The notes under the pieces were generated by a model. It was not told where the DNA came from. It ran no database searches and saw only the letters and a list, made by a program, of their open reading frames with translations. The position numbers and the translations under genes are program-made. Positions 15,746-49,831 of a stretch of 64,000 nt of DNA are shown in pieces. This DNA comes from an uncultured Elusimicrobiaceae bacterium (GTDB lineage Bacteria; Elusimicrobiota; Elusimicrobia; Elusimicrobiales; UBA9959): positions 52,405-116,404 of the forward strand of contig CAYQJX010000004.1 of NCBI GenBank assembly GCA_964417965.1. The letters run 5' to 3'. Numbering within the stretch: position 1 is the stretch's first letter; each line of letters starts with the position of its first letter.

Positions 15746-15757
15746 GTAAGCCCCCTT

Positions 15758-31195: not shown

Positions 31196-32014
31196 TTAAA
31201 CTTTCAAGGCGCGCCTTATGCCCCAGTCCAGAACGGCGTCCGGCAGCAGCCATTTCAGGAAAAGAATACCCCGGGCCGAGAAGGGCACGGGATAGCGCGC
31301 CGCCGGGCCGGACGAACGCAGGGCCTTAAGGATGACGGCGGCCACCGCCTCCGGGCCGGGCGCGCCCGCGCGGTAGCCGGCGCGGAATTTTTCCGTGATG
31401 TTCTTCACCAGCGGGGCGTAAACTCCGGAGCCGGAATACTTCTCCAGGTTCACCAGGGCCGTGTTATCCCATTCAGTCCTGATGGGGCCGGGCTCTATCA
31501 GCACCACCTTTATCCCGAACTGGGCGACCTCCAGGCGCAGCGCGTCGGAGTAGGCCTCCAGGGCGTGCTTGCTGGCGTGGTACCAGCCGCCGGTGGGCAT
31601 GGTTACCTTGCCGGCTATAGAGGAGATATTAATTATAGTCCCCCCGCCCGCGCCCCGCATCTGCGGCAGCGCCAGCTGGGTCAACCGCGCCAGGCTGAAA
31701 AGATTAACTTCGAACTGCCGCCGGGCCTCGTCCAGCGGCACGTCCTCCACCGCCCCGTGGGCGCCGTAGCCGGCGTTATTTATAAGGATGTCCAGGCGCC
31801 CGCCGTCCTTAAGCACCTCGGCCAGCGCGGCCTTCAGGGAAAGTTCGTCGGTCACGTCCAGGCGGAACGTGCGGGCCCCCAGGGCCTCCAGGCCGCGCAT
31901 CTTCTCCACGCGGCGGGCCCCGGCGAAGACCTTATAGCCGCTCTTCAGCAGCAGCTCGGCCGTCGCGTAACCTATGCCGGCGGAGGCGCCGGTGACCAGT
32001 ACGGTTTTATTCAT
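31196..32014 (-). CDS. Short-chain dehydrogenase/reductase (SDR)
   Basis: TGASAGIGYATA (TGxxxGxG), NNAG, and YHASKHAL (YxxxK). Confidence 0.85.
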   Translation of the reverse strand: MNKTVLVTGASAGIGYATAELLLKSGYKVFAGARRVEKMRGLEALGARTFRLDVTDELSLKAALAEVLKDGGRLDILINNAGYGAHGAVEDVPLDEARRQFEVNLFSLARLTQLALPQMRGAGGGTIINISSIAGKVTMPTGGWYHASKHALEAYSDALRLEVAQFGIKVVLIEPGPIRTEWDNTALVNLEKYSGSGVYAPLVKNITEKFRAGYRAGAPGPEAVAAVILKALRSSGPAARYPVPFSARGILFLKWLLPDAVLDWGIRRALKV

Positions 32015-32518: not shown

Positions 32519-33610
32519 CTACTGCAGGATGAACAGGTCTTTCGTGACCGTATACCGGCCCGAGAGCCAGTCCGTTATCTCGCGGGCGGCGGCCGCCGTG
32601 TCGTTCTCCCTGGCTTCCAGAAATTCCGAATAGTCGTTCTTCAGCGACTCCTTCTCCCCGTCCGTCAGGACGTCGAGCCCCTTGTCCATGAACGCCGGCA
32701 GGTCCCGCTCCAGCAGCTCCGCCATGTCGTGACAGGTCACCATACCGGCGGCCTTGCGGAAAGCTTTAACCGGATCGTAGGCGGCCCCCTTCTCGTACGA
32801 GGCCTTCAGGGTCAGCAGCACTATCTTGGACAGCGCGGCCTGGTTCATCGGGTTCACCGCGTGGGCGGCCAGCTGCCCGGCCATCTCGGCGGGGCGGCCG
32901 GTGAAGGGCCGCAGGTGAAGGAACTTGCACATGCGGGGCCCGTCGTTGACGGGGTAATTATCCCAGAGGAAAGGCTTGCGGCCCAGCTGCTGCGCGGCGG
33001 CGGCGAGGCTCTCCGGGGTGTAGGATTTGGAACAGACCTGTTCCCCCGTCCAGAACATGCTCACCCTGGGGGCCAGGGCCTTCCCCAGCTGGTCGAAATA
33101 GCCGGCCGGCATCTTGCCGAAGAGCTTCTCCAGGACCGGGTCCAGGGAATAATAGGTGGGGCAGAAGACCAGCTGGCGGGCCTTGGAGCGCTCGGCTATC
33201 CAGTTGACGATCTCTATCTGGCGCTCCGCCAGAGCAGGCAGGTCGCCCTTCATGTCGTCCATCAGGATGCCCAGTTTGTCCACGCCTATGCGGTTGAAGG
33301 CGTCTATCTTATGCTGCAGCAGCTTCTTGGCTTCGGCATCGAAAGGCGTGAGGTAGATCTCGTAAGGGCTGAAGCCGACGCCGAACTCTATGCCGGCGGA
33401 ATGGCACTGCCCGGCCAGTTTGGTCAGCTTCTCCTCGTGCACCTTCGGGAAAGGTTCGCGCCACTTCTTGCGCAGGTAGGGGTCGCCCTTGGGGGCGTAG
33501 ATATAGAACGAGAACCCGTGCTTGCGCAGGAAATTGGCGTAATCGGCGCGTTCGCCCCAGCTCCAGGGCTCTCCGTAAAAACCTTCTATTATTCCGGTAG
33601 TGGTGTTCAT
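32519..33610 (-). CDS. GH84-like beta-N-acetylglucosaminidase (O-GlcNAcase family catalytic domain)
   Basis: GIIEGFYGEPWSW...FYIYAPKGDPYLR... and a DD pair in LGILMDDMKG, typical of the GH84 TIM barrel. Confidence 0.7.
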   Translation of the reverse strand: MNTTTGIIEGFYGEPWSWGERADYANFLRKHGFSFYIYAPKGDPYLRKKWREPFPKVHEEKLTKLAGQCHSAGIEFGVGFSPYEIYLTPFDAEAKKLLQHKIDAFNRIGVDKLGILMDDMKGDLPALAERQIEIVNWIAERSKARQLVFCPTYYSLDPVLEKLFGKMPAGYFDQLGKALAPRVSMFWTGEQVCSKSYTPESLAAAAQQLGRKPFLWDNYPVNDGPRMCKFLHLRPFTGRPAEMAGQLAAHAVNPMNQAALSKIVLLTLKASYEKGAAYDPVKAFRKAAGMVTCHDMAELLERDLPAFMDKGLDVLTDGEKESLKNDYSEFLEARENDTAAAAREITDWLSGRYTVTKDLFILQ

Positions 33611-35031: not shown

Positions 35032-35277
35032 TCACTGCCTGACTATTTTTACACCGTTGTACTCGATCCAATCCAGCGAAAGCGGGCTTAAGATGGCGTT
35101 AGCCGGGACCGTTACTGTCCTGTCTCCCGGCCGGCACAGCCGGCGCAGCTCCCAATCGCTCAGGAAGACCTTTTTTACCGGCGCGCCGGCCTTTTTCCGC
35201 GCGGGCGCGGCGCCTGCCCCCTCGTTCCGGGAAAGGTGCTCAGCGATAAGGTCTTCTACCGCGCCCTTGGTAAACAT
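35032..35277 (-). CDS. Small BMC-associated protein (encapsulation-peptide-like N-terminus + short C-terminal domain)
   Basis: 81 aa. Amphipathic GAVEDLIAEHLSR, then an Ala/Pro/Lys linker, then FLSDWELRRL...VTVPANAILSPLSLDWIEYNGVKIV. The last part resembles the short N-terminal module seen on some BMC-locus enzymes (recollection). It fills an otherwise empty same-strand gap. Confidence 0.5.
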   Translation of the reverse strand: MFTKGAVEDLIAEHLSRNEGAGAAPARKKAGAPVKKVFLSDWELRRLCRPGDRTVTVPANAILSPLSLDWIEYNGVKIVRQ

Positions 35278-35307: not shown

Positions 35308-35604
35308 TTAAGAGACCTTTACCGAGATCCTGGCCAGGTACTTGTCCAGGTCGTCGGCGGGGCGCGGTATCACGTGCATCCCGCACAGCTCCCCGACCTT
35401 CTGGGCGGCGGCGGCGCCGGCTTCCACGGCGGCGCGCACGGCGCCGACTTCGCCCACGCACAGCGTGGTCACGTAGCCGGAGCCTATCTTCTCGTAGCCG
35501 AGCAGGCGCACCTTGGCGGCCTTGCTCATGGCGTCAGAGGCTTCGATCATACCGATGAAACCCTTAGTCTCTATCATTCCCAGCGCTTCTTTCGGTTCGG
35601 ACAT
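35308..35604 (-). CDS. BMC-H shell protein (PduA/EutM/CcmK family, Pfam00936)
   Basis: [57 protein letters not shown]...HVIPRP. Confidence 0.9.
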
Positions 35605-35627: not shown

Positions 35628-36608
35628 TTAGTACTGCCCTTTGGCGGCCTCGCCGCCGGAAACTATGGCTATGCTGGCGCTCGTGCCGAGGCGCGTGGCG
35701 CCGGCCTTGATCATGGCCGCGGCCACTTCGGCGTTCTTGATGCCGCCGGAGGCCTTCACGCCCATCTCGGGGCCCACGGTCTCGCGCATCAGGGCGATGT
35801 CCTCGGGAGTGGCGCCTCCGGAGCCGAAGCCGGTGGAGGTCTTCACGAAGTCGGCCTGCGCGGCTTTTGACATTTTGCAGGCGCGGATCTTCTCGTCCTT
35901 GGTAAGATAGGAAGTCTCCAGGATCACCTTGAGCGTTTTGCCGCGCGTGGCGTCGCGCACCGCTTTTATGTCGTCCTGCACCAGCTGGTCGTTGCCGCTC
36001 TTGAGCGCGCCGATATTGATGACCATGTCTATCTCGTCGGCGCCGTTGGCTATGGCGTCACGGGCCTCTATGGCCTTCACGGTCGGGGTCGTAGAGCCAA
36101 GCGGGAAACCGATGACGGTGCAGACCATCACATTGGAGCCGCGCAGCAGGCGGGACGACAGCGCCACGTAGCCGGGGTTAACGCAGACGGAGGCGAAGCG
36201 GTACTTGCGGGCCTCCTCGCAGAGCTTGCCGATCTCTTCCTGCGTGGCGTTGGCCTTGAGCAGGGTATGGTCGATCATGCCGGCGATGGAAGAGCTGGAT
36301 TCGTTGGGGTTGCAGAAAGTCACGCGGTCGGCGGTAGCCTTTATCTGCTGCGGGGTGTATTTATTGAGCGGGTTGCAGCTCTGGCAGGAGGAGGAGCAGG
36401 TGTTCTCTTCGAGCCGGCAATCGCCCTGGCCGGAGCAGGCCTTCTTCTCGGCGGCGCCGGGCTTGTTGACCAGCGGGTGCTGGAACACCTTGCCGGACGA
36501 GCCTATGCTCACATTGTCGCCGAGGGTCTGCCTCGGGGCGGGAGACCCGCCGGCCTTCATGATCCTGGCCACCTCGGCCGCGATTTTCTTTATATCTTCG
36601 TCGTTCAT
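35628..36608 (-). CDS. deoC: Deoxyribose-phosphate aldolase (DERA/DeoC) with ~105-aa N-terminal extension
   Basis: The DERA core begins at [15 protein letters not shown] and includes FASVCVNP and the Schiff-base region DFVKTSTGF. The N-terminal extension carries an EP-like helix and a Cys cluster. Confidence 0.85.
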
Positions 36609-36609
36609 A

Positions 36610-36888
36610 TTAGCCTCGCTTGTCGATGTGAACTTTATCCACTATGCCGGCTACCACGGTGCGCACCGGCGCCTTGGAGTTCTTTAAAATTTTCCGGGCG
36701 GAACCGCCCTCGTCCACTATCAGCACGGTGTCGCCCACGCCCGCGCCCTGGTTGTCTATCACCAGCTGGGCCTCGCCCGCGAACTCGCCGTCGGCGCCCA
36801 GCGGCCTGGCCAGCAGCATGGTGGCGTTCTTCAGCCCCGGGTGCCGGCGCGTTGCCCAGACGTTTCCAATGACTTTAGCTACGAACAT
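36610..36888 (-). CDS. BMC-P vertex protein (EutN/CcmL/PduN family, Pfam03319)
   Basis: [30 protein letters not shown]...[23 protein letters not shown]...[12 protein letters not shown]. Confidence 0.9.
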
Positions 36889-36892
36889 AAAA

Positions 36893-37189
36893 TTAGTTGA
36901 ACTTCTTCCCGTCTATTATTCCCACTATCGCAGCGTCCACCGGCGGCGGGGCCGCCTTCACGGCGGTTTCCCCTTCCCAGCCTTCGAAAGCCAGGATGGC
37001 CTCGCGCGAGGCGACGAAGAAAACCGTTTCCCCCGCCCCGGCGCCTACGGTGTCGCCGGCTACCAGCGGGTCGCCCGACGGCTTGTCGGTCTCCCAGTCG
37101 AGCGGCTGTATCAAAAGCAGGGTCTTCGACTCCATGCCGCAGCACTGGCGGGAGCAGAAAACCCTTCCTATGACCTTGGCCTGTTTCAT
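36893..37189 (-). CDS. BMC-P vertex protein paralogue (divergent, with insertion)
   Basis: MKQAKVIGRVFCSRQCCGMESKTLLLIQPLD...VAGDTVGAGAGETVFFVAS...VDAAIVGIIDG. It has an extra FEGWEGETAVKAAPPP segment. Confidence 0.85.
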   Translation of the reverse strand: MKQAKVIGRVFCSRQCCGMESKTLLLIQPLDWETDKPSGDPLVAGDTVGAGAGETVFFVASREAILAFEGWEGETAVKAAPPPVDAAIVGIIDGKKFN

Positions 37190-37190
37190 T

Positions 37191-37637
37191 TCAATAGCAC
37201 TTCTGTTCTATCGCGGTGATCTTGTCGAGGCGCTTCTGGTACTTGCCGCCTTCGAAAGGGGTATTGAGCCAGACCTTGATCATCTCCTCGAGGGCCAGCT
37301 CGCCGTGCGTCTTGCCGCCGAGGCAGAGCACGTTGCAGTCCTCGTGCGCCGCGGCGAAGCGGGCCGAGATGGTGTCATAGGCGGCCACGGCGCGGATGCC
37401 GTGCACCTTGTTGGCGGCCAGCGGCATGGCCCCGTTGAAGCCGTCCACCAGCACGGCCTTGTCGAATTCCTTGCGGCGCACGGCCTCGCTGACGAGCAGG
37501 GCGATGTCCGGGAAATCCACCGGCTCCACGGAGTAACAGCCAAAGTCGGTAACGTCGTGGCCGAGCTTCTGCAGGAACTTCTTAAGCCGCTCCTTAGCCT
37601 CGAAACCAGCGTGATCCGCGCCTATGACGATCCTCAT
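37191..37637 (-). CDS. rpiB: Ribose-5-phosphate isomerase B (RpiB/LacAB family)
   Basis: MRIVIGADHAGFEAKE...GCYS...VDFPD...NKVHGIRAA...HEDCNVLCLGG. Confidence 0.9.
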   Translation of the reverse strand: MRIVIGADHAGFEAKERLKKFLQKLGHDVTDFGCYSVEPVDFPDIALLVSEAVRRKEFDKAVLVDGFNGAMPLAANKVHGIRAVAAYDTISARFAAAHEDCNVLCLGGKTHGELALEEMIKVWLNTPFEGGKYQKRLDKITAIEQKCY

Positions 37638-37647
37638 AAATTCTCTC

Positions 37648-38196
37648 CTATATGGCCGCGCCGAGATGTTCGTGCGCGTTGGGTATCACTATGCGGCTCA
37701 CTACCGCGTCCTCGCCTATGGCCTTAACGCCGGCGGCCACCGCGGTGCGCACGGCGCCGGGCTCGCCCACGACGGTGAAGTAGCCTTTGCCGCCAATGCC
37801 CTTGCCGGTGTTCACTTCGGCCACGTGCACGAAGGCGGCCTTGGCGGCCGCGTCGGCCGCGAACAGCGCCGGCAGGGCCTCCTTGGTCTCCACTATGCCC
37901 ACGGCCTCTATGCTGGCGGGCTTAACTTTCTTGTTGAGCGCGGCCAGCGCGCCGGCGTGGACGTTGCGGATGATGTGGCGCGCTATGAGCGTGTTGCCCG
38001 CTATCTCGGCGCCTTTGGCCAGCGAGGATTCCACCTCGCCGACGGGGCCGGAGAGCACTATTATGTATTTCCCCTTGGAGATCGCCTGGTGCACCTCGGG
38101 CTTTACGCCCGCGGCCTTGCACATGGCGTCCAGCGTCTCTATGCCCTTGGCTATCGAGGAAAGTTCCATCAAACCTATGGCAATGTTGGCCTGCAT
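37648..38196 (-). CDS. BMC-T shell protein (tandem Pfam00936, PduT-like; Ser at the PduT Cys38 position)
   Basis: Two BMC domains, IAIGLMELSSIAKGIETLDAM... and IEAVGIVETKEALPALFAADAAAKAA.... The start is taken at MQANIAIG. The ISKGKY motif stands where PduT has ICPGKF. Confidence 0.85.
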   Translation of the reverse strand: MQANIAIGLMELSSIAKGIETLDAMCKAAGVKPEVHQAISKGKYIIVLSGPVGEVESSLAKGAEIAGNTLIARHIIRNVHAGALAALNKKVKPASIEAVGIVETKEALPALFAADAAAKAAFVHVAEVNTGKGIGGKGYFTVVGEPGAVRTAVAAGVKAIGEDAVVSRIVIPNAHEHLGAAI

Positions 38197-38207: not shown

Positions 38208-39620
38208 TTAAGCTATCCTGAGGTCGCCGACTACGCTGCACTGCAGCGGGCGCACGAAATGGCTGGTCTTGGTGATGCCGTCTCCCGTCGGGGTGCCGAT
38301 GGACATGGAGGCGTAGCCCTCGCCGAGGCCGAGGCCGTGCAGCGTGCAGCCGTTCTTGACGAAGATGGAGCAGGCCATGCGGCGGCCCATCTTGGTCATG
38401 TTCCTGATATTGGTGGAATACATCCCGGCCGAGTGGTGGTTCTCCCCCTCGGCGAAACGCGCCAGTTCTATGGCCGCGTCCACGTCCCTGGCTACCGTGA
38501 CCGGCAGCACCGGCATCAGCTGCTCGCTGACCACGAAGGGGTGGTCGTTCGGGACTTCCGCCCAGAGCACCCGGATCTCGTCGGACAGGGTCAGGCCGAT
38601 GGCCTTGGCGATAACGGACGGGTTCTTGCCGATGAAAGAGCGGTTCACCTTGGGCTCGCGGCCGGGTTCCAGTATTGCCAGCTTGGTCAGCTGGTCCATC
38701 TGGGGGCCGGTCAGCTCATAGGCGCGGGCGTCGGAGCGCATGGCTTCCAGGAAGCGGGAGCGCGCGGCCTCGGTCACTATCACTTCCTTCTCGGCGATGC
38801 AGAGCACGTTGTTGTCGAAGCCGCAGCCGTAAATTATTTCCTTCGCGCAATCCGGGAAGACCGCGGTCTCGTCCACCACTATCGGCGGGTTGCCGGGCCC
38901 GGCGGCTATGGTCTTGCAGGGCTTGCCGGAGGTCATGGCCACTTTTACTATGGCCGGGCCGCCGGTGACTATGTTCATATGGGTGTTCGGATGGGACAGC
39001 AGCTGCTTGGTGGCTTCCTGGGTCGGGTTGGCTATGGTGGTGACCAGGTTGGCCGGGCCGCCGGCGGCGACGATGGCGGAATTGAGGACGCGCACGGCGT
39101 CGGCCACACAGCCCTTGGCGGCGGGATGAGGAGAGAAGACGACGGCGTTGCCGGCGGCGAGGATGCCGATGGCGTTAGAGATGATGGTGGCCACGGCGTT
39201 AGTAGACGGCGTAATGGCCGCCACCACGCCGAAAGGGGCGTATTCCACCAGGGTAAGGCCCTTGTCGCCGGTATAGGACACGGCGCGCAGGTCTTCCACG
39301 CCCGGGGTCCCGTCGATGCAGACCATGTTCTTGAGGACCTTGTCCTCCACCCGGCCCATGCCGGTCTCGGCCACGGCCAGCTCGGCCCAGCGGCGGGCGT
39401 TGGCGCGGGAGACTTCGCGCATGGCGGCTATGATCTTTTCGCGCGCCACCAGGCCCAGGTCCTGGAAGCCGGGCTGCGCGGCGTTGGCGGCGGCTACCGC
39501 CTGGTCGACGGTGTCGAACACGGGGCCGCCGGCGGCGGCCGGGGACGGGGCGTCCGCGGCGCCGAGGCTGCGCACCACCTCGGTCACTATCTTTTTAAGG
39601 TCTTCTTCGCTTATGGGCAT
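38208..39620 (-). CDS. CoA-acylating aldehyde dehydrogenase (PduP/EutE-like) with N-terminal encapsulation peptide
   Basis: ALDH fold with catalytic-Cys context FDNNVLCIAEKE. The N-terminus MPISEEDLKKIVTEVVRSL is followed by an Ala/Pro/Gly linker. Confidence 0.85.
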   Translation of the reverse strand: MPISEEDLKKIVTEVVRSLGAADAPSPAAAGGPVFDTVDQAVAAANAAQPGFQDLGLVAREKIIAAMREVSRANARRWAELAVAETGMGRVEDKVLKNMVCIDGTPGVEDLRAVSYTGDKGLTLVEYAPFGVVAAITPSTNAVATIISNAIGILAAGNAVVFSPHPAAKGCVADAVRVLNSAIVAAGGPANLVTTIANPTQEATKQLLSHPNTHMNIVTGGPAIVKVAMTSGKPCKTIAAGPGNPPIVVDETAVFPDCAKEIIYGCGFDNNVLCIAEKEVIVTEAARSRFLEAMRSDARAYELTGPQMDQLTKLAILEPGREPKVNRSFIGKNPSVIAKAIGLTLSDEIRVLWAEVPNDHPFVVSEQLMPVLPVTVARDVDAAIELARFAEGENHHSAGMYSTNIRNMTKMGRRMACSIFVKNGCTLHGLGLGEGYASMSIGTPTGDGITKTSHFVRPLQCSVVGDLRIA

Positions 39621-39628
39621 AAGAGAGA

Positions 39629-39937
39629 CTAATCCTGGAATTTGTCGGCCGACTTCTTGAACACCACCTTGCCGTCCTTCTCTATGGTGTCGACTATCGC
39701 GAAGACGGTGCAGTCCACCGGCGTATTCTCGGTCTTTGAAGTCTGGCGGGCGCTGGAGCCCTGCACCAGCAGCACCAGTTCCCCGGTGCCGGCGCCCACG
39801 GCGTCTATAGCGACGAGCGTATTGCCGCGCGGCTTATCATCCAGGCCCACCGGCTGCACCATCAGCAGCTTGGTGCCGACGAGCTTGTCGTCCTTGCGGG
39901 TACAGACCACGTTGCCCACTACTCGTGCGAATAGCAT
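39629..39937 (-). CDS. BMC-P vertex protein (third paralogue)
   Basis: MLFARVVGNVVCTRKDDKLVGTKLLMVQPV...VAIDAVGAGTGELVLLVQGSSAR...DCTVFAIVD. Confidence 0.9.
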   Translation of the reverse strand: MLFARVVGNVVCTRKDDKLVGTKLLMVQPVGLDDKPRGNTLVAIDAVGAGTGELVLLVQGSSARQTSKTENTPVDCTVFAIVDTIEKDGKVVFKKSADKFQD

Positions 39938-39998: not shown

Positions 39999-40283
39999 TT
40001 ACTTCTTTTTGGCTTCGCTTATCGGCAGTTTGCCTTCCAGGTCGCCGTGAGGCTGCGGGATCACGTGCACGCTCACCAGCTCGCCCACTTTCTGGGCGGC
40101 GGCGGCGCCGGAGTCGCAGGCGGCGCGGCAGGCGGCCACTTCGCCGCGGAAAAGGATGGTCACGAGGCCGGAGCCGATCTTTTCGTAGCCGACTATCTTC
40201 ACGTTGGCGGCTTTCACCGCGGCGTCGGCCGCTTCCACACAGGCCACGAGGCCCTTGGTTTCTATCATTCCGAGTGCGTCCAT
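39999..40283 (-). CDS. BMC-H shell protein (PduA/EutM family)
   Basis: [59 protein letters not shown]...HVIPQP. Confidence 0.9.
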
Positions 40284-40319: not shown

Positions 40320-40952
40320 TCAGACTATGTAGGCCGGGTCGCAGTTCTTCAGGCCGGCGGCGTTGGCCTCTTCCACGTCCAGGTGCAGCTCCAGCGAGTA
40401 GGCGTCGGAGACGCGGCACAGCACCCGCTCGTAAATGGTCTCCCGGTCGGTGCCCCGGCCGCAGAGCACGCGCACTTCCTGGCCGTCGCGCACCTTGTAA
40501 GCCGCGCCTTCCTTCACGTTGAAATGGATATGCCGCTTGGACAGGATCAAGCCCTGCGGAATCGTGACGGAGCCTTTAGGCCCGACCAGTTTTACGCCCG
40601 GGGAATTGGCCAGCTTGCCGGAGTCGCGGATAGGCGGTTCCACGCCGAGGCGGCGCGCGTCGCCCAGCGACACCTCCACCTGGCTGTACTTCCGGTACGG
40701 CCCTATCATCCGGACGTCCTTGAGGGCGCCTTTGGGGCCCTCCACCGTCACCCGCTCGTTGCAGGCGTACTGGCCCGGCTGCTTTACCGGCTTGAGCTGC
40801 GTGTCGTCGCAGTCGGTCCCGAAGAGGGTCTTAAAATCTTCCTTCGTCAGGTGCACGTGCCGGTTGGAGACGCCTACGGGGATGGGCAGGGCAGAACGCT
40901 CCTGCCTGAGCTGCAGGTCCTGGAGTATTTCGCCGAGTAGCTTTTCGTTCAT
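40320..40952 (-). CDS. pduL: Phosphate acyltransferase PduL (PTAC) with EP-like N-terminus
   Basis: IPVGVSNRHVHLTKEDF..., a second half KRHIHFNVKEG, and GPYRKYSQVEVSLGDARRLG. N-terminal helix MNEKLLGEILQDLQL. Confidence 0.85.
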   Translation of the reverse strand: MNEKLLGEILQDLQLRQERSALPIPVGVSNRHVHLTKEDFKTLFGTDCDDTQLKPVKQPGQYACNERVTVEGPKGALKDVRMIGPYRKYSQVEVSLGDARRLGVEPPIRDSGKLANSPGVKLVGPKGSVTIPQGLILSKRHIHFNVKEGAAYKVRDGQEVRVLCGRGTDRETIYERVLCRVSDAYSLELHLDVEEANAAGLKNCDPAYIV

Positions 40953-40961
40953 TTTAATTTT

Positions 40962-41741
40962 TTACCGGCTCAGCGCCTGCTGGAAATGTATCACGCGCAG
41001 GAACTTGTCGGCCTTGAGGCTCTCTCCGCCCACCAGCGCGCCGTCGATATCGCCCTGGGCCATCAGCTCGTCGATGTTGTCGGCCTTCACCGAGCCGCCG
41101 TAGAGGATGCGCACGGCTTCGGCGTAATCCTTGCCGTAGATGCGCTCCATCTGCTTACGCACAAAAACGTGGGCGTCCTGCGCCTGGTCGGGGGTGGCGG
41201 TCTTGCCGGTGCCTATGGCCCAGACGGGTTCGTAGGCTATTACCACCTTCGCGGCTTCTGCGGCCGTAATGCCGGCGAAGGCGCCGGTCAGCTGGGTCTC
41301 CAGCACGCGGTAGGTTTTCTGGCTCTCGCGCTCTTCCAGCGTCTCGCCGATGCAGAGCACGGGCACGATATTGGCCTTTATGGCGGCTTTCATCTTCTTG
41401 TTGACGACCTCGTCGGTCTCGAGGAAGATCTTGCGGCGCTCGGAATGCCCGATGAGGGCGTGGGTGCAGCCCGCGTCTATGATCTGCGACGGGGACACCG
41501 CGCCGGTGAAGGCGCCCTTTTCCTCCCAGGCTACGTCCTGGGAAGAGAGGAAGATCTTCGAGCCGGCGATGGCGGCTTTTACCGCGTGCAGGTTGGTGAA
41601 AGAGGGGGCGAGCAGCACCTCGTGCTTGAGGTCCGGGTCCAGGCCTTTCTTCATGGCGGCGGCCAGGTCGGCGGCCTCCTTGGAAGTCAGGTGCATCTTC
41701 CAGTTGCCGGCTATCATCGGGATTCTTTTGTGGGAAGCCAT
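40962..41741 (-). CDS. tpiA: Triosephosphate isomerase
   Basis: IAGNWKMH, GHSERR and AYEPVWAIGTG. Confidence 0.92.
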   Translation of the reverse strand: MASHKRIPMIAGNWKMHLTSKEAADLAAAMKKGLDPDLKHEVLLAPSFTNLHAVKAAIAGSKIFLSSQDVAWEEKGAFTGAVSPSQIIDAGCTHALIGHSERRKIFLETDEVVNKKMKAAIKANIVPVLCIGETLEERESQKTYRVLETQLTGAFAGITAAEAAKVVIAYEPVWAIGTGKTATPDQAQDAHVFVRKQMERIYGKDYAEAVRILYGGSVKADNIDELMAQGDIDGALVGGESLKADKFLRVIHFQQALSR

Positions 41742-41788: not shown

Positions 41789-42337
41789 CTAAATTATTTC
41801 CCGCAGCAGCTCCTGCCTGGGCTGGGGAATGACCACCTTCTCCACCAGCAGGCCTTTTTTGCCGGCTACGGCGGCGCCGGCGGCCACGGCGGTTTCAACA
41901 GCGGCGACGCTGCCGGTCATAGTGACGAAAGCTTTGCCGCCCAGCGCCATGGCCAGGCGTATCTCCAGGAGTTTCACATTGCCGGCTTTTACCGCCGCGT
42001 CGGCGGCCTCTATCAGGGCCGCGACCGAAAAAGCTTCTATAATGCCCAGGGACTCAAGACCGTCCACCACGGTGGTGCCTTCTATGGCCGGGAAAACCTC
42101 CGGATGTATGTTGGGGATAACAAAGCTGTCCACCAGGGAATGCGCCGCCTTTGCGGAGCCGGCTTCAACGGCGGCGTTAACGGCGCCGACATCGCCCGCG
42201 ATAAGCGCGATGTATTTGCCCGCGCAGATGGACCGCGAAAGTATCAATTTGATATCCGCGGTTTTCAGCATGGCGTCGGCCGCCTCCATGCCCTTGGCCA
42301 CACTGGAAAGTTCAACACCGCCTATTGCGTTTAGCAT
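41789..42337 (-). CDS. pduT: BMC-T shell protein, PduT-like with conserved Cys38
   Basis: Tandem BMC domains. LILSRSICAGKYIALIAGDVGAV aligns with Salmonella PduT [20 protein letters not shown], whose Cys38 is the 4Fe-4S ligand. Confidence 0.85.
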   Translation of the reverse strand: MLNAIGGVELSSVAKGMEAADAMLKTADIKLILSRSICAGKYIALIAGDVGAVNAAVEAGSAKAAHSLVDSFVIPNIHPEVFPAIEGTTVVDGLESLGIIEAFSVAALIEAADAAVKAGNVKLLEIRLAMALGGKAFVTMTGSVAAVETAVAAGAAVAGKKGLLVEKVVIPQPRQELLREII

Positions 42338-42344
42338 AAAGACC

Positions 42345-43688
42345 TTAAGCGATTATCTCCACATAGCGTTCGTTTACCTTGCCGACGGTGCCGGAGATGC
42401 TGGCGTGCACCGGGCAGCCCAGTTTGTCGGCCGGGACGTCCCCCACCACGGCGCCCTTCTCCACCCGCTGCCCCTCTTTGACGGAGGGCACGCAGGGAAC
42501 GCCGATATGCTGGCTCATTAAAATTTTCACCTTGCCCGGCTTATAAACGGCGTCGCTCCACGGCGCGGCCTTGTTGTAATCGTCCAGGCCCAGGCGCCGC
42601 ACCAGTTTTGAAACAGGCACCTTGCGGAAATCCCTGACAGGGTGCACTTCCGGCTTAACCCCGGTGTTAAGCTGCGAATTCTTGAAGCCCATCTTCTGCT
42701 CCCGCAGGTCGCTCTTGGCCGCGACGCAGGCCTCGCGCGGGTGCAGGCCCTCGGGACAGGAGTAGAGCGAGCACAGGGAGCACTCGCAGCACAGCAGGCC
42801 GTACTGGCTGTGCAGTTTATGTTCCGGCCCGCCGGCAAAAAGCATGGTGCGCATCACGCGGTGCGGCTGCACGTTGTGGCCCAGCAGGTAGCGCGGGCAG
42901 AACTCGGTGCAGAAAGAGCACTGGTCGCAGGCGGAGCGGCCGACGCGGGTGAAAACGGGGCGGCTCTGCGCCTTTTTGACTATCAGCGGATGGCTTTTCG
43001 GCAGCACTATGATGCCGGAGGAGGCCTTCATCACCGGCAGGTCGAAATCGGTCTGCACCTTGCCCATCATCGGGCCGCCGTCTATATAAGCGGGGTCCTT
43101 AACGGTGAAGCCCCCGCAGAGTTCCACGGCCTCCCGCCAGGTTATCCCTACCGGCACGCGGAAGGTGGCGGGTTTCTTTACCCCGCCGTTGACGGTTATG
43201 AAAGTTTCGGTGACCGGGCGCGGCGCGAGGGCGGCGTTATAGAGCGTCTCCACGTTGACCACCACGCAGCCCACTTCCAGCGGGAGGCCGCCGGGCGGCA
43301 CTATCCGGCCGGTGGCCTCGTAGACCAGGCACTGCTCGTCGCCGGCGGGGTAGTAATCGCCCATTTCAAGGACGGAAATGTTTTTGCGGGACTTCGCTAT
43401 TTCTTTAAGGCGCGGGATGATCTTTTCGTGTTTCTTTTTGATACCGACCACGCCTTTGGACGCGCCCACGGCGCCCATCAGCAGCTCCAGCCCGTCGAAG
43501 ACCTGCTCCGGAAAATATTCCAGGATCTTCTGGTCCTTCTTGAGCAGCGGCTCGCATTCGGCGGCGTTGACCAGCGCGAACTCGGCCGTCCCCTGCGCTT
43601 TCACGTAGGAGGGAAAGCCCGCGCCGCCGGCTCCAACAACGCCGGCGGCACGAAGGTTTCTGCTGAATTCAGCTGAGGTTTGGGACAT
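42345..43688 (-). CDS. RnfC/PduS-like flavo-iron-sulfur oxidoreductase
   Basis: GVVGAGGAGFPSYVK (51K-type NAD/FMN site), an SLBB-like region, and two ferredoxin motifs CDQCSFCTEFCP and CCECSLCSLYSCP. The C-terminal segment is RnfC_N-like (HIGVPCVPSVKEGQRVEKG...VHASISGTV). Confidence 0.8.
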   Translation of the reverse strand: MSQTSAEFSRNLRAAGVVGAGGAGFPSYVKAQGTAEFALVNAAECEPLLKKDQKILEYFPEQVFDGLELLMGAVGASKGVVGIKKKHEKIIPRLKEIAKSRKNISVLEMGDYYPAGDEQCLVYEATGRIVPPGGLPLEVGCVVVNVETLYNAALAPRPVTETFITVNGGVKKPATFRVPVGITWREAVELCGGFTVKDPAYIDGGPMMGKVQTDFDLPVMKASSGIIVLPKSHPLIVKKAQSRPVFTRVGRSACDQCSFCTEFCPRYLLGHNVQPHRVMRTMLFAGGPEHKLHSQYGLLCCECSLCSLYSCPEGLHPREACVAAKSDLREQKMGFKNSQLNTGVKPEVHPVRDFRKVPVSKLVRRLGLDDYNKAAPWSDAVYKPGKVKILMSQHIGVPCVPSVKEGQRVEKGAVVGDVPADKLGCPVHASISGTVGKVNERYVEIIA

Positions 43689-43699
43689 TCAGTAGTTGT

Positions 43700-44929
43700 T
43701 TATTTTGAGGTCACCAGGCGCTTCTTGACCGCGGCGGCGAGACGCTTTATGCCCTCGTCTATCTTTTCCGGGCTGGCGAACGAGAAGTTCAGGCGCATGG
43801 TGTTCTTGCCGGAGCCGTCGGAGTGGAAAGCCGAGCCTATCACATAGGCCACGTTCTCCTTGAGCGCGTCCTGGAACATGTCGTCGGCGCTCATCTGCTC
43901 GGGCAGGCGCACCCACAGGAACAGGCCGCCCTCGGGGTTGGTCCAGGTAACGCCTTCCGGCATATACTTCTCCAGGGCTTCGATCATGGTATTCTTCTTG
44001 ATCCGGTAGTCTTTCTTGACCACCTCGATGTGTTTCTCGAAGAAGCCGGAGCGCAGGAACTCGGCGGCTATCAGCTGGTTGAGGCTGGAGGTGCAGAGGT
44101 CGAGCGACTGCTTGAGGATCTCCATCTTTTTAATGATCTGCTCGTGGCCCAGGATGATCCCGAGGCGCAGGCCCGGGGCGAAGGTTTTGGAGAAGGTAAA
44201 CAGCGAGATGATGTTGTCGGTCTTCTTGGTCTCTTTGTCCAGGCGGTAGAGCATCTTGGGCTCTTTGCCCTCGAAGCGGATCTGGCGGTAGGGAGAATCC
44301 TCGATCACGGCGACGTTATATTTATCGGACAGCTCGATGATCTTCCGGCGCTTCTCCTCGGACAGGGTGACGCCGCTGGGGTTCTGGAAATCCGGGACCA
44401 GGTAGAGGAACTTGTAATGCTCGTCCTGGGCGTGCAGCCACTCGAGCTTTTCCTGCAGCTCGTCGGTGCTGATGCCGTCGTCCTCCAGCTTGACGCCGAT
44501 GAACTCCGCGCCGTAGGAGCGGAACACCTGCAGCGCGCCCATGTAGCTGGGCTTCTCCACGATGACCGGGTCGGAGGCGTCGATGAACAGGCGGCCCACC
44601 ATGTCCAGCGCCTGCTGGCTGGCGGTGGTGATGATGAGGTTCTCGGGCTTGGCGTCTATGTTCTCGTACTTCTTGAGGAACTTTATAAACTCTTCTTTCA
44701 GCTCCGGCAGGCCGTCGGTCGGGCCGTACTGCAGCGCCACCCGGCCTTTCTTGGCCATGATCTCCTTGACGGTATCGGCCACGAAATCGTAAGGGAAATG
44801 TTCGGGGGCGGGCAGGCCGCCGGCGAAGGAGATGATGCCGGGCTGGTTGGTGGTCTTGAGGAGTTCCCGGATCACGGAAGCTTTGGTGCGCCGCGGGGTG
44901 GTGGCGATATTCTTAGCGATGTCGATCAT
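43700..44929 (-). CDS. PLP-dependent aminotransferase, class I/II
   Basis: FAGGLPAPE, a fold-type I pattern, and the PLP-Lys context FTFSKTFAPGLRLG. It lies 11 nt upstream of the RnfC-like gene on the same strand. Confidence 0.8.
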   Translation of the reverse strand: MIDIAKNIATTPRRTKASVIRELLKTTNQPGIISFAGGLPAPEHFPYDFVADTVKEIMAKKGRVALQYGPTDGLPELKEEFIKFLKKYENIDAKPENLIITTASQQALDMVGRLFIDASDPVIVEKPSYMGALQVFRSYGAEFIGVKLEDDGISTDELQEKLEWLHAQDEHYKFLYLVPDFQNPSGVTLSEEKRRKIIELSDKYNVAVIEDSPYRQIRFEGKEPKMLYRLDKETKKTDNIISLFTFSKTFAPGLRLGIILGHEQIIKKMEILKQSLDLCTSSLNQLIAAEFLRSGFFEKHIEVVKKDYRIKKNTMIEALEKYMPEGVTWTNPEGGLFLWVRLPEQMSADDMFQDALKENVAYVIGSAFHSDGSGKNTMRLNFSFASPEKIDEGIKRLAAAVKKRLVTSK

Positions 44930-46823: not shown

Positions 46824-48302
46824 CTATTTATTGAACCTGGCCTCCAGCGGGGCGAGGAGCCAGCCAAGGGTGAAGGTGGAGACGGTGCCGATCACGATGA
46901 CCCAGCTCCAGCCGATAGGGGCCAGGCCTTTCTCCGAAAGATAGAGCACCAGCCCCGCCAGCCCCGCGCTGAACAGCATAGCCACCACGTTGGAGCGGTT
47001 AGCCGCGCGCTTGGTCATCAGGCCCAGCAGGAACACGCCCAGCAGACTCCCCGCCGTAACCCCGTTGATCTTGAAAGCCAGCCACAACATGCGCCCCGAG
47101 CCCGCCGCGCACAGCCACGCTATCCCCGCCAGCAGCAGCCCGAAGCAGGCCACGCTGACGCGCGACACCAGCAGGTAATGCCGCTCGGCGGCGTCCTGCC
47201 GGATGAGCGGCCGGTAGATATCCGTGACGAAGGACGACGACAGCGAGGAGAGCGGCGAGTCTATGCTCGCCAGCACCACCGCCGCCAGCACCAGCCCCTT
47301 CAGGCCCGCGGGCAGCACGTGCACGGTGAAATGCGACAGGATCTTGTCGGCGTTCTCCGGCAGCGGCAGCCCCGGGTTCTGCCCGTAGAAGGCGAACAGC
47401 AGCGTCCCGAGGGCCAGGTACAGCCAGGTCACCGGGAAGCTGGTAAAGATGGTGAGGATCAGCGTCTTCTGGCTCTCGCGGCGCGTCTCCAGCGTCAGCA
47501 GGCGCTGCATCAGCTCCTGGTCCGTGCCGAAGGCCGCCATCGAGCCGAACACGCCGTTGAGCACCGCCGCCCACAGCAGGTTCGGGTCCTTCATCCCCCA
47601 GCCTATGTTGAACACCGACAGCTTGCCGGCTTCCGACGCCAGCTGCCAGGCGCCCGCCAGGCCGCCGTCGATATGCAGCACCAGGTAGCCCGCCACCGCG
47701 GCGCCGGCCACGTAGAAGATCACCGTCTCGAAAGCGCCGGTCCACATGACGGCCTTGATGCCGCCGAAGCCGATAAAGACGATACTGACCAGCGTAAAGA
47801 ACGCTATGGTATAGCCGAGCTGCCAGCCCATGATCACCGACACCGCCAGGGACGCCGCATACAGCCGCACGCCGGAGGCGAACAACCGCGTGACGAAGAA
47901 GAAGGCCGAGCCCGCGTACTGCGTCTGGGGCCCGAAGCGGTGCTTGAGGAACTCGTAGATGGTGGTGCAGTTGAACTTGTAGAAAGCCGGGATGAAGAAG
48001 AAGGCGATCAGCACGCGCGCCGACGCCGAGCCGATGAAGAACTGCAGGTACTGCCAGTTCTCGGTGTAGCCGATGGGCGGGATGCCCACTATGGTCATGG
48101 CGCTTATCTCGGTGGCCACAAAGGAGAGCGTTCCCACCCAGACCGGCGTCTTGCGGTTGCCCAGGAAATAGTCCTTCGTGTCCTTTTCCCCCCGCCCTTT
48201 CACGAAGGCGATGACGAACAGGGCTATGACGGCGGCCCCGAGTATGCCGTAATCCAGCGGGGCCAGCCCGGTTATCTGCTGCAAGGATGCGATCTCGTTC
48301 AT
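46824..48302 (-). CDS. Sodium:solute symporter (SSS) family transporter
   Basis: 492 aa with about 13 hydrophobic helices and SSS-like motifs (GRKTPVWVGTLSFVATEISAMT...). ATGA overlap with the upstream GH3 gene. Confidence 0.85.
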   Translation of the reverse strand: MNEIASLQQITGLAPLDYGILGAAVIALFVIAFVKGRGEKDTKDYFLGNRKTPVWVGTLSFVATEISAMTIVGIPPIGYTENWQYLQFFIGSASARVLIAFFFIPAFYKFNCTTIYEFLKHRFGPQTQYAGSAFFFVTRLFASGVRLYAASLAVSVIMGWQLGYTIAFFTLVSIVFIGFGGIKAVMWTGAFETVIFYVAGAAVAGYLVLHIDGGLAGAWQLASEAGKLSVFNIGWGMKDPNLLWAAVLNGVFGSMAAFGTDQELMQRLLTLETRRESQKTLILTIFTSFPVTWLYLALGTLLFAFYGQNPGLPLPENADKILSHFTVHVLPAGLKGLVLAAVVLASIDSPLSSLSSSFVTDIYRPLIRQDAAERHYLLVSRVSVACFGLLLAGIAWLCAAGSGRMLWLAFKINGVTAGSLLGVFLLGLMTKRAANRSNVVAMLFSAGLAGLVLYLSEKGLAPIGWSWVIVIGTVSTFTLGWLLAPLEARFNK

Positions 48303-49831
48303 TTTATCTCCGTAGCTGAAAGTTCCACAGGTACCCGCCCCTTAGCCTCACCGGTCCCGGCGAGGACCCGCGCCGCGGCCTCCTGGAATTCCTTGAGGGC
48401 GCAGAAAGCGCAGAGCCCGGCCGCGGGCGCGGGTGAAAGCCCGGCCAGGACGAAAGGGCTGCCGAAAGCCGCGATCACGGAACCGGCCGAACCGGCCACC
48501 GCCGCCTCCAGAGCGTACCTTTCTTCCGGCGAAAGATTTATGGCGCCGCTTCCCGCCCTCGGGCGCGAGAAGACCCCGGCGGCCAGGCGCATGCCGCAGC
48601 CGGGCCGGTAAGGTTCCACCCTGACGCCGAGGCGCAGCAGCTCGTCGGCGAAGGCGCGGCCCCGCCAGGCCTCCGGCCTGGTGAGCGGCTCGAAATAACC
48701 TACGGTGTCCCCGGCCTTTACCCTGAAATTTTTTTCACCCCAGGCCCAGGCCAGGCAGGCCGGCGCGGCTTCGGCGTTGAAGGCGCGGTGCTCGCGGCAG
48801 CCGGCCGTAGAGAAAGGCGGCGGCGCGGCGCGGAAGGGCGAAAGCTTGCGGACCAGCAGGTCCTGGCGGGCCAGCGCCAGCTCCACGGCGGCCCCGGCAA
48901 TCAGCCCGTCGTTGGCCGCCCCGGCCAGCGCCTCATGCAGGGCGAAAGGGTCCTCGGGATAGAGCAGCACGTCCGCCCCGGAGAGGAAGGCCTTCACCCC
49001 GGCCCGGCCCTCGTCCGAGATGGCCTTCATGTTCAGCGCGTCCGTCAGCACCAGCCCGGCGTAGCGCAGCCGCCCGCGCAGCAGGTTCCCTATGATCTCT
49101 TTCGAGAACGAGGCGGGCGCGGCGGCGTCCACGCCGGGGAAGGACAAGTGCCCGACCATTATGGAGTCGGCCTGCGCCGACAGGGCAGCGAACGGGCGCA
49201 GGTCTTTTTCTTCCAGGTCGTTCAGGCTGCCTTCCAGCACCGGCAATTCAAGGTGGGAATCGGCCGAGGTACTCCCGTGGCCCGGGAAATGTTTAAGGCA
49301 GGCCAGCGCGCCCTGGGAGCGCATACCGGAAAGGTAAGCCCCGGCCAGGCGCGAGACCAGCGCCGGGTCAGCTCCGAAAGCGCGCACGTTGACGATAGGG
49401 TTATCGGGGCGGGAAGCAAGGTCCACCACCGGGGCTAACACCCAGTCCACGCCAAGTGCTTTGGCCTCGAGGGCCGTTATCTCCCCTTTGCGGCGGGCCA
49501 GCGCCTCGGAACCCGAGGCGCCTATGGCCATATTGGACGGCAGTTCGGTGGCGCCGGCCACCCACTGGCCGGGCCCGTTCTCGTAATCGGAAGCGATGAG
49601 CAGGGGCGTTTCGGAGGCGGCCTTCAGCGCGCGCGAGGCCTCCAGCACCTCCCCGGCCTTCCCGCCGTAAAAACAGAAACCGCCTACGCCGAGCTCCACC
49701 AGCTTCAGGGCGTAGTCCGGGTCGGTGACGCCGAACCTGTATTCAGGATAGATCAGCCGGGCCAGCTTCCGCGGGTTCAAGCCTTCTTCCCCCGCGCCCG
49801 GGCCTTCTCCGCCTTCTTTATTTTTTTCCAC
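48299..49831 (-). CDS. nagZ: Glycoside hydrolase family 3 (NagZ-like beta-N-acetylhexosaminidase) with C-terminal extension
   Basis: The GH3 N-domain contains KHFPGHG and VGHL. The ATG at 49831 overlaps mazG by 55 nt, so the true start may be an internal TTG near 49777. Confidence 0.75.
   Translation of the reverse strand: MEKNKEGGEGPGAGEEGLNPRKLARLIYPEYRFGVTDPDYALKLVELGVGGFCFYGGKAGEVLEASRALKAASETPLLIASDYENGPGQWVAGATELPSNMAIGASGSEALARRKGEITALEAKALGVDWVLAPVVDLASRPDNPIVNVRAFGADPALVSRLAGAYLSGMRSQGALACLKHFPGHGSTSADSHLELPVLEGSLNDLEEKDLRPFAALSAQADSIMVGHLSFPGVDAAAPASFSKEIIGNLLRGRLRYAGLVLTDALNMKAISDEGRAGVKAFLSGADVLLYPEDPFALHEALAGAANDGLIAGAAVELALARQDLLVRKLSPFRAAPPPFSTAGCREHRAFNAEAAPACLAWAWGEKNFRVKAGDTVGYFEPLTRPEAWRGRAFADELLRLGVRVEPYRPGCGMRLAAGVFSRPRAGSGAINLSPEERYALEAAVAGSAGSVIAAFGSPFVLAGLSPAPAAGLCAFCALKEFQEAAARVLAGTGEAKGRVPVELSATEIK

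Follow-up and report, generated by a model that had tools for sequence, protein, structure and literature searches.

A metabolosome NADH dehydrogenase and its cysteine-bearing shell trimer as the probable cofactor-recycling module of an Elusimicrobia sugar-phosphate-utilising microcompartment

Two adjacent genes in the sugar-phosphate-utilising (SPU) microcompartment locus of an Elusimicrobia bacterium probably encode its cofactor-recycling module, composed of the metabolosome NADH dehydrogenase (MNdh) and the cysteine-bearing shell trimer BMC-T^SE. This assignment draws on the gene identities, the domain order, the conservation of the cofactor ligands, the adjacency of the genes, the conservation of the pore cysteine, and the absence of an alcohol dehydrogenase (AlcDH) from the related loci and from the window, the whole 64-kb stretch of DNA that was analysed. 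The pair is real but not new; the locus is an ordinary copy of a system already described in the MNdh/BMC-T^SE model of Sutter et al. (PNAS 2024, PMC11626177), which names SPU loci as well as an MNdh clade of Elusimicrobia. The model draws its support from the homologous pair of a Clostridium botulinum GRM1 locus, studied by EPR, voltammetry and NADH assays: the two proteins form a complex whose FMN and Fe-S content and redox potentials were determined, NADH is oxidised, and the shell cluster is reduced in an NADH-dependent manner (PMC11626177). NAD+ recycling by PduS in SPU loci that lack AlcDH had been raised in 2014 (PMC4207490) and was repeated for SPU later (PMC11585597). An earlier note on this DNA had seen no alcohol dehydrogenase at the locus, a reading that the Pfam scan extends to the whole window, and had proposed that electrons are exported through the RnfC-like protein and the Fe-S pore of the PduT-like trimer. 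The sequence evidence supports this proposal, which coincides with the published model. The genes of the locus are listed below.

43700..44929, minus strand, class I/II PLP aminotransferase (PF00155), 11 nt upstream of MNdh and co-oriented with it
42345..43688, minus strand, MNdh (PduS/RnfC homologue), 447 aa, identified by Pfam domains and RnfC alignment
41789..42337, minus strand, BMC-T^SE (PduT-like single-layer tandem BMC trimer), 182 aa, with pore Cys38, identified by Pfam and PduT alignment
40962..41741, minus strand, triosephosphate isomerase (TPI; PF00121, E = 7e-93)
40320..40952, minus strand, PduL-type phosphotransacylase (PTAC; PF06130; NF011652 238 bits, above cut-off) with a short N-terminal helix resembling an encapsulation peptide (EP)
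39999..40283, minus strand, BMC-H shell hexamer (PF00936)
39629..39937, minus strand, BMC-P shell pentamer 1 (PF03319)
38208..39620, minus strand, acylating aldehyde dehydrogenase (AldDH) of EutE/PduP type, the NADH source (PF00171; NF011927 565 bits, cut-off 403)
37648..38196, minus strand, second BMC-T^S, PduT fold, with Ser of QAISKGKY aligned to Cys38 and no cluster ligand
37191..37637, minus strand, RpiB-type isomerase with the catalytic Cys replaced by Asp, an SPU hallmark (PF02502)
36893..37189, minus strand, BMC-P shell pentamer 2 (PF03319)
36610..36888, minus strand, BMC-P shell pentamer 3 (PF03319)
35628..36608, minus strand, deoxyribose-phosphate aldolase (DERA; DeoC type, PF01791), the SPU signature enzyme (TIGR00126 295 bits)
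35308..35604, minus strand, BMC-H shell hexamer 2 (PF00936)
35032..35277, minus strand, conserved small protein of 81 aa at the 3′ end of the locus, syntenic in relatives (40-79% identity)

Judged by its gene content, the locus is that of an SPU microcompartment. It shares with the SPU loci described before (Axen 2014, PMC4207490; Sutter 2021, PMC8217296; PMC11585597, 2024) the N-terminal extension of DERA, the Cys-to-Asp replacement in RpiB, the AldDH, the BMC-P triplet, a BMC-T^s and a PduS homologue. The replacement in RpiB is apparent in the alignment to 3HE8, where VLVDGFNG of the query lies against IVICGTGL, placing Asp at the Cys position. The shell set consists of two BMC-H, two BMC-T and three BMC-P, and the presence of PTAC, TPI and the PduS homologue together with the absence of BMC-T^dp and AlcDH fits the described types SPU1, SPU4 and SPU7 (PMC11585597). 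The SPU microcompartment that has been studied experimentally differs from this one, as it is SPU6 from Chloroflexi, which has no PduS. The N-terminal sequence of the AldDH includes an EP-like helix, MPISEEDLKKIVTEVVRSL, and the 81-aa protein matches the C-terminus of TIGR02536 (eut_hyp) weakly and below the cut-off (E = 6e-4). The aminotransferase gene, which is syntenic in 43 related loci, is probably the first of the transcription unit; a promoter-like site is located at 44998-44970 on the minus strand.

The earlier note had described the 41789-42337 gene as a PduT-like BMC-T retaining the Fe-S cysteine, the 37648-38196 gene as a second BMC-T with Ser at that position (ISKGKY), and the neighbouring product as an RnfC/PduS-like 51K protein with two 4Fe-4S motifs. 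All three descriptions held, with all three genes on the minus strand; translated on the plus strand, the coordinates give no meaningful protein. The product of 41789-42337 has two PF00936 domains (Pfam) and carries the sequence LSRSIC38AGKYIALIAGDVGAV. It aligns with the PduT structures 3PAC, 3NWG and 3N79 over its full length and without gaps (E = 1e-50 to 1e-58), so Cys38 is positionally equivalent to the cluster ligand of PduT. In these alignments Cys38 falls on the Cys of Citrobacter freundii PduT (3PAC, SKTICPGKF) and of the Desulfitobacterium hafniense protein (3NWG, AKPVCPGKY), and on the engineered Ser of the C38S crystal mutant of Salmonella PduT (3N79, SKTISPGKF). The residue is kept in all 72 of the MNdh-adjacent BMC-T genes compared, which come from several phyla, and in 120 of 120 protein homologues. 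None of the 28 second BMC-T genes of the same related loci has Cys at position 38, where Ser (27) or Ala (1) is found. Taken from these sequence counts, the pattern is not due to chance.

The residue that follows the pore cysteine is the only point at which the locus deviates from the family features that can be tested on sequence. The motif "CP(G/S)K" was called universally conserved (PMC11626177), while the 41789-42337 product and its close relatives have C-A-G-K, retaining Cys, Gly and Lys and having Ala at +1. The +1 position is occupied by P in 36, S in 26 and A in 10 of the 72 MNdh-adjacent BMC-Ts, and by P in 99, A in 15 and S in 6 of the 120 homologues (the P count includes P0091, a homologue that a pattern search missed). 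As read from these alignments, P, S or A is tolerated at +1 in the BMC-T^SE family, whose real variation exceeds that of the printed motif. Ala after the pore cysteine, a possibility now added to Pro and Ser, is thus probably immaterial.

The MNdh gene encodes a four-domain protein in which Pfam places PF01512 (Complex1_51K) at residues 13-151, SLBB (PF10531) at 164-209, a 4Fe-4S dicluster domain at 253-316 and RnfC_N (PF13375) at 383-443. All four domains of the MNdh family score above the Pfam gathering thresholds, with the dicluster scored as PF13534 here and as pfam13634 in PMC11626177. The closest solved structure is that of RnfC (7ZC6_C, E = 3e-52), to which MNdh aligns in two pieces, residues 383-438 with RnfC 29-83 and residues 7-321 with RnfC 122-424. 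This split, with RnfC_N at the C-terminus of MNdh, indicates a circular permutation relative to RnfC and NuoF. The cysteine motifs of MNdh are C-DQ-C-SF-C-TEF-CP and C-CE-C-SL-C-SLYS-CP, the second having four residues ahead of its last Cys rather than three, and all 8 cysteines align with the cluster motifs of RnfC (CDQCSFCTEFCP and CCECSLCSLYSCP). The flavin/NADH motifs GGAGFP, AAECEP and YPAGDE likewise align with GGATFP, AAECEP and YPQGAE of RnfC. No EP was recognisable in the N-terminal sequence of MNdh. A comparison with NCBIfam found no model naming the protein as PduS or MNdh; the best matches, rnfC, PrdC and eut_PduT, were all below their cut-offs, so curated naming adds no support to the identification.

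The stop codon of the MNdh gene is separated from the start of the BMC-T^SE gene by a spacer of 7 nt on the minus strand, and a BMC-T gene lies directly downstream of MNdh in 72 of the 76 related loci that extend far enough in that direction. In the published survey, the MNdh gene adjoins a Cys-bearing BMC-T^S in 97% of the loci (PMC11626177).

The locus resembles the C. botulinum system in having a circularly permuted, four-domain, RnfC-like flavo-Fe-S protein, an adjoining Cys-bearing BMC-T of PduT type and an acylating AldDH (PMC11626177). The two differ in the microcompartment they belong to (GRM1 in C. botulinum, SPU here) and in the pore sequence (C-P/S-G-K and C-A-G-K, respectively). 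In the published survey, 361 loci combine the MNdh/BMC-T^SE pair with the lack of an alcohol dehydrogenase, and the locus belongs to this class (PMC11626177). Similarity to the PDU microcompartment of Salmonella and Citrobacter is also clear: MNdh is 42% identical over its full length to the Salmonella protein annotated as "cobalamin reductase PduS", and BMC-T^SE is about 50% identical to PduT, with no gaps and Cys38 conserved. An interaction between PduS and PduT has reportedly been observed for that microcompartment. The C. botulinum MNdh homologue and the MNdh of this locus stand at about equal distance from Salmonella PduS. Unlike the locus, PDU includes a B12-dependent diol dehydratase and the alcohol dehydrogenase PduQ; since the locus has neither, the historical role of cobalamin reductase would have no substrate there. 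With RnfC of the Rnf complex and NuoF of complex I, MNdh shares an FMN/NADH site and two 4Fe-4S clusters. In RnfC, however, the barrel-sandwich domain is N-terminal and docks on membrane subunits, whereas in MNdh it stands at the C-terminus and a shell protein is the partner.

DERA would cleave deoxyribose 5-phosphate inside the shell, giving glyceraldehyde 3-phosphate together with acetaldehyde, which the acylating AldDH would convert to acetyl-CoA with production of NADH; PduL would regenerate CoA with release of acetyl phosphate. Because no alcohol dehydrogenase is encoded, NAD+ would be regenerated by MNdh. Its FMN would be reduced by NADH and the electrons would then pass, one by one, through the two 4Fe-4S clusters of MNdh to the 4Fe-4S cluster of BMC-T^SE, which the three Cys38 residues are expected to hold in the middle of the trimer; an unspecified acceptor in the cytoplasm would then receive the electrons. 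As no reaction of the locus consumes reducing power, outward transfer would be the only direction that balances the stoichiometry. We infer that the pair at the locus behaves like its homologue, that MNdh is placed on the lumenal face of the shell, and that this is the main route to NAD+ in vivo. The window contains neither a ferredoxin nor a flavodoxin gene, and a six-frame search of the window for CxxCxxCxxxCP, combined with inspection of small ORFs for an external acceptor, matched only MNdh.

A role for MNdh as the main recycler depends on how NAD+ could otherwise be restored. The Pfam scan of gene-like ORFs of at least 180 aa in the 64-kb window detected no Fe- or Zn-type alcohol dehydrogenase (PF00465, PF00107, PF08240), and none is present in about 30 syntenic Elusimicrobia loci, including their variable inserts; the extra DNA within the operons of these relatives encodes toxin-antitoxin pairs, glycosyltransferases and an outer-membrane protein. 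The only protein related to alcohol dehydrogenases in the window is a short-chain dehydrogenase (SDR) at 31196-32014, 3.3 kb past the last shell gene. It was rejected as a substitute, as it is generic, has no EP, is absent from all related loci and is separated from the shell genes by two unrelated genes and a strong minus-strand terminator (32076-32053). NAD+ could still be recycled mainly by an encapsulated alcohol dehydrogenase from a satellite locus, or by exchange of NAD(H) through a pore such as that of the Cys-less second BMC-T, with MNdh/BMC-T^SE being accessory or condition-specific. We regard this as unlikely. The absence of the enzyme from the window covers 64 kb of the genome, the Cys-less second BMC-T is conserved at the locus, most surveyed MNdh loci (1,725) also carry AlcDH, and knockouts of pduS, pduT and pduQ in Salmonella each impaired growth only mildly, which implies redundancy (PMC11626177). 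Against this, besides the lack of an alcohol dehydrogenase in the syntenic loci and the position of the SDR behind its terminator, the MNdh/BMC-T pair is strictly kept in the clade down to 56-61% MNdh identity, and such retention argues for selection.

The shell cluster might serve another purpose than conducting electrons: it could gate the pore by sensing redox state or oxygen, or be a route for the delivery or repair of Fe-S clusters, and the PduS-like protein would then serve this shell cluster. Such sensing, gating and delivery roles are said to have been among the early proposals for PduT, by Crowley and co-workers in 2010 and by Pang and co-workers in 2011. They would agree with the free fourth ligand position of the cluster and with its sensitivity to oxygen in homologues (PMC11626177), but NADH reduces the shell cluster of the homologous complex, where the potentials run downhill from FMN to the Fe-S clusters (PMC11626177), and the fact that MNdh and BMC-T^SE strictly occur together, along with an AldDH, fits cofactor recycling. 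We consider these roles improbable at the locus. A flow of electrons in the opposite direction, in which the shell cluster takes electrons from a donor in the cytoplasm and MNdh produces NADH or low-potential electrons inside, would exploit the reversibility, in principle, of RnfC-type modules. The lumenal location of MNdh comes from docking and footprinting of the homologue, and in half of the AlphaFold docking solutions MNdh lay on the outside of the shell (PMC11626177). Nevertheless, the encoded pathway yields NADH and has no reductive step, and the measured potentials favour transfer from FMN to the cluster (PMC11626177), making inward flow very improbable. Equally improbable is that the protein acts as a classical PduS cobalamin reductase, regenerating cob(I)alamin for a B12-dependent enzyme, as the annotation of its Salmonella homologue at 42% identity would have it. 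The locus and the 64-kb window include no B12-dependent enzyme, adenosyltransferase or cobalamin gene (Pfam), and this reading is rejected on that account; DERA, AldDH, PduL, TPI and RpiB do not use B12, and a B12 role of PduS has been argued to be at best indirect (PMC11626177).

With outward electron export through MNdh and BMC-T^SE as the preferred reading, the locus contributes little beyond one more case of what has been published. What it does confirm is the strict retention of the pair in SPU loci without AlcDH in groundwater Elusimicrobia. Since the locus has no competing alcohol dehydrogenase, the clade would be a naturally clean setting in which to test the electron-export model, and if MNdh/BMC-T^SE were the sole NAD+-recycling route the organelle would be an obligate electron exporter.

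A more useful lead is found in DERA. Within its N-terminal extension of about 107 aa, an amphipathic EP helix spans residues 3-19 and a Cys-rich segment comes after it; TIGR00126 spans residues 108-316 and the DERAs in the PDB align only at 105-326. In the extension there is a conserved Cys3-(Cys/His) motif, composed of C71 (or His), C75, C78 and the invariant C99, of which no mention was found in the cited SPU literature. An AF2 model of DERA, built with a 73-sequence alignment, had pLDDT values of 36-64 over residues 50-110, too low to judge whether the cysteines cluster. It seems doubtful that MNdh/BMC-T^SE is the sole NAD+ recycler of the Elusimicrobia SPU clade and that the DERA motif is at the same time an undescribed metal or Fe-S centre, acting as a tether to the shell or to MNdh or linking DERA activity to the redox state of the compartment. 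If true, the motif would be a new feature of a cargo protein in a microcompartment type that is very widespread and barely studied. The Cys3-(Cys/His) motif itself is a probable metal-binding site.

The earlier note had proposed that a PduT-like shell trimer with a pore cysteine and an adjoining 51K-type protein with two 4Fe-4S motifs export electrons from a microcompartment that encodes no alcohol dehydrogenase (ADH). The peptide strings quoted there were matched by minus-strand open reading frames, whereas translating the plus strand gave nothing meaningful, and both genes of the pair lie on the minus strand:

43688-42345, minus, metabolosome NADH dehydrogenase (MNdh), a PduS/RnfC homologue, 447 aa
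42337-41789, minus, PduT-type shell trimer (BMC-T^SE), 182 aa, tandem BMC domains

The MNdh domains follow the order Complex1_51K FMN/NADH (13-151), SLBB (164-209), 4Fe-4S dicluster (253-316) and RnfC barrel-sandwich (383-443). The closest solved structures are RnfC subunits (7ZC6_C, E = 3e-52), to which MNdh aligns in two pieces (query 383-438 with RnfC 29-83, and query 7-321 with RnfC 122-424); therefore, its circular permutation is directly shown. The eight cysteines of the clusters all match RnfC positions, as do the GGAGFP, AAECEP and YPxGxE motifs. The 51K-type domain and both 4Fe-4S motifs thus stood as claimed, except that the second motif, CxxCxxCxxxxCP, does not have the canonical spacing. 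MNdh shares 42% identity with Salmonella PduS over its full length and is about as distant from it as the characterised C. botulinum MNdh (40%).

Seven nucleotides separate the MNdh stop codon from the BMC-T^SE gene, the product of which aligns over its full length and without gaps with the PduT-type trimer structures 3NWG, 3PAC and 3N79 (E = 1e-58 to 1e-50). As had been claimed, its Cys38 (...SRSICAGKY...) falls on the cysteine of 3PAC (...SKTICPGKF...) and on the engineered serine of 3N79, the Salmonella C38S crystal form. The second BMC-T (38196-37648, minus) has the same fold and, also as claimed, a serine at this position (...AISKGKY...). When one genome per species was scanned, relatives were identified at 428 loci, and the best 80 were retrieved. 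The closest of these 80 are from groundwater Elusimicrobia MAGs, with 95% identity to GWB2_63_22. Among the same 80, 76 loci extend far enough downstream to be judged, and in 72 of them a BMC-T gene directly follows the MNdh homologue; these 72 include loci from Ignavibacteriota, Acidobacteriota, Omnitrophota and Planctomycetota. All 72 of these BMC-Ts have the pore cysteine, whereas none of the 28 second BMC-Ts does (Ser in 27, Ala in one), and the cysteine is also present in all 120 of the closest metagenome homologues of BMC-T^SE (CPGK in 99, CAGK in 15, CSGK in 6). The association of the pore cysteine with MNdh adjacency is therefore absolute within the sample, far beyond chance. The residue after the cysteine is Pro in 36, Ser in 26 and Ala in 10 of the 72 and is followed by Gly-Lys. 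While the published string is CP(G/S)K (PMC11626177), the observed motif is C-[PSA]-G-K, in which the +1 position varies and Gly-Lys is invariant. The C-A-G-K of the window protein is shared by its nearest relatives, and the survey shows alanine to be one of three residues tolerated after the pore cysteine.

Four loci among the retrieved relatives depart from this arrangement. No BMC shell gene was found within the retrieved flanks (up to 10 kb per side) of the MNdh homologues of L064 (2682-3974), L072 (10001-11308) and L076 (10001-11299), which are from Omnitrophota, Ignavibacteria and Chromatiales MAGs and share 44-46% identity with MNdh; in L065 a Cys-bearing BMC-T (255-806) lies 9 kb upstream of the homologue. 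In these loci the permuted RnfC-like protein may have a satellite or non-BMC use.

The pair belongs to a minus-strand series of 15 genes, in this order:

1-5: class I/II aminotransferase (44929-43700), MNdh, BMC-T^SE, triosephosphate isomerase (TPI), PduL phosphotransacylase (PTAC)
6-10: BMC-H, BMC-P, acylating aldehyde dehydrogenase (AldDH), second BMC-T, RpiB
11-15: BMC-P, BMC-P, deoxyribose-phosphate aldolase (DERA), BMC-H, 81-aa protein

AldDH matches NF011927 at 565 bits and DERA, which has an N-terminal extension of about 107 residues, matches TIGR00126 at 295 bits. An amphipathic helix of the encapsulation peptide (EP) type opens each of AldDH, DERA and PduL; the inspected N-termini of MNdh, TPI and RpiB have none. 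In the RpiB alignment an Asp replaces the catalytic Cys of solved enzymes, a substitution reported for all isomerases of sugar-phosphate-utilising (SPU) microcompartments (PMC11585597). Taken together, the gene set, the EP-type helices and the RpiB Asp define an SPU microcompartment. Its composition (PTAC, TPI and PduS present; BMC-T^dp and ADH absent) matches the published descriptions of SPU1, SPU4 and SPU7. Among the best 80 of 428, about 30 Elusimicrobia loci keep the order from the aminotransferase to the 81-aa gene, with MNdh identities as low as about 60%.

The claimed absence of an ADH gene held for the whole 64-kb window: genes were called by their codon-position GC signature, and a Pfam scan of all gene-like ORFs of at least 180 aa found no PF00465, PF00107 or PF08240 protein. 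Only a generic SDR (32014-31196) comes near this class of dehydrogenase. It was rejected as the missing enzyme: genes for a TPR protein and a GH84 hydrolase separate it from the last shell gene, 3.3 kb away, the region's strongest minus-strand terminator (32076-32053) precedes it, and it accompanies the locus in no relative among the best 80 of 428. The extra intra-operon DNA of the retrieved relatives never includes an ADH; it encodes toxin-antitoxin pairs, glycosyltransferases or an outer-membrane protein. These inserts look mobile, with MazE/MazF-like and VapBC-like pairs between BMC-T^SE and TPI (L005 11957-12552, L025 11951-12549, L019 2824-3743) and three glycosyltransferase-like genes between PduL and BMC-H (L034/L035/L049, about 13480-16770). 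No ferredoxin or flavodoxin gene was found in the window, and CxxCxxCxxxCP had no match outside MNdh in its six frames, in agreement with the report that no specific acceptor co-occurs with MNdh (PMC11626177).

These sequence features lead us to identify the pair as an MNdh/BMC-T^SE module. Sutter et al. (PMC11626177) found MNdh in 2,172 BMC loci, adjoined by a Cys-bearing BMC-T in 97% and always accompanied by AldDH; 361 loci have the pair without an ADH, the listed BMC types include SPU, and the Elusimicrobia MNdh form a clade in their tree. Their purified complex contained FMN and Fe-S and oxidised NADH with a kcat of 20 per second, and NADH-dependent reduction of the shell cluster was seen by EPR, alongside voltammetry and X-ray footprinting. 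The mechanism that they propose is exactly that of the earlier note, whose interpretation is sound. Most likely, NADH made by AldDH would be re-oxidised by MNdh and the electrons exported through a predicted 4Fe-4S cluster that three Cys38 residues would hold. The outward direction is inferred because no step encoded at the locus consumes reductant, and from published potentials; a lumenal placement of the EP-less MNdh would be part of the model. The chief alternative is that the module is redundant, either with an ADH gene located elsewhere or with NAD(H) leakage through another pore. The PduS-like protein could also be read as a cobalamin reductase, but such an enzyme has no substrate at this locus. 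As for the module, both observation and interpretation have been published before for this locus type and phylum: in 2014 Axen et al. (PMC4207490) flagged PduS in ADH-less SPU loci and, for GRM1 loci, the conserved PduT cysteine as a conduit of electrons, and MNdh/BMC-T^SE was cited as the alternative NAD+ route for SPU loci (PMC11585597). The window protein departs from the published description only in the alanine after its pore cysteine.

The aminotransferase (43700-44929, minus) is a MocR-type PLP catalytic domain without HTH, and 11 nt separate its gene from the MNdh start. The gene stands directly upstream of MNdh in 43 related Elusimicrobia loci among the best 80 of 428; no role for such an enzyme in SPU metabolism has been described. 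A promoter-like site lies just upstream (44998-44970), so the gene may open the BMC operon. The 81-aa ORF (35032-35277, minus), the last gene of the locus, shows 40-79% identity in relatives and belongs to no Pfam family; a weak match below the cut-off (E = 6e-4) links its last 48 residues to the C-terminal end of TIGR02536, a hypothetical protein from operons for ethanolamine utilisation. The same-strand flanks encode a GH84 beta-N-acetylglucosaminidase (32519-33610), syntenic in most relatives, a sodium:solute symporter (46824-48302) and a GH3 (NagZ-like) hydrolase (48299-49831). The search for minus-strand terminator-like sites found none with a strong, GC-rich stem from 44929 to 32076. Together these features hint that amino-sugar or glycan scavenging is co-expressed with the SPU organelle. 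A class II aldolase (PF00596; 4961-5875, minus), an enzyme occurring in some SPU loci, lies about 30 kb from the BMC locus beside a XerC/D-like tyrosine recombinase.

The DERA extension has a conserved Cys-rich segment (residues ~58-101; 36306-36437, minus) after the EP-type helix. The SPU paper describes this extension as a helix and two low-confidence strands only, and its text does not mention the cysteines (PMC11585597), of which the literature search found no other description. In the AlphaFold2 model of DERA the helix (3-19) and the barrel are confident and residues 21-110 are not. The sequence, ...DC64RLEENTC71SSSC75QSC78NPL...FC99NP, follows the pattern C-x6-C-x3-C-x2-C-NPL...F-C-N-P. 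In an alignment of 73 sequences C99 is present in all, C75 and C78 in 70 each and C71 in 55. The most divergent branch has, in place of C71, a His two residues upstream (...DHT...CPxC...), and C-H in place of C99-N. The exchange of a Cys ligand for His at unchanged spacing is typical of a metal site, and the motif looks like a putative Cys3-(Cys/His) metal or Fe-S site.
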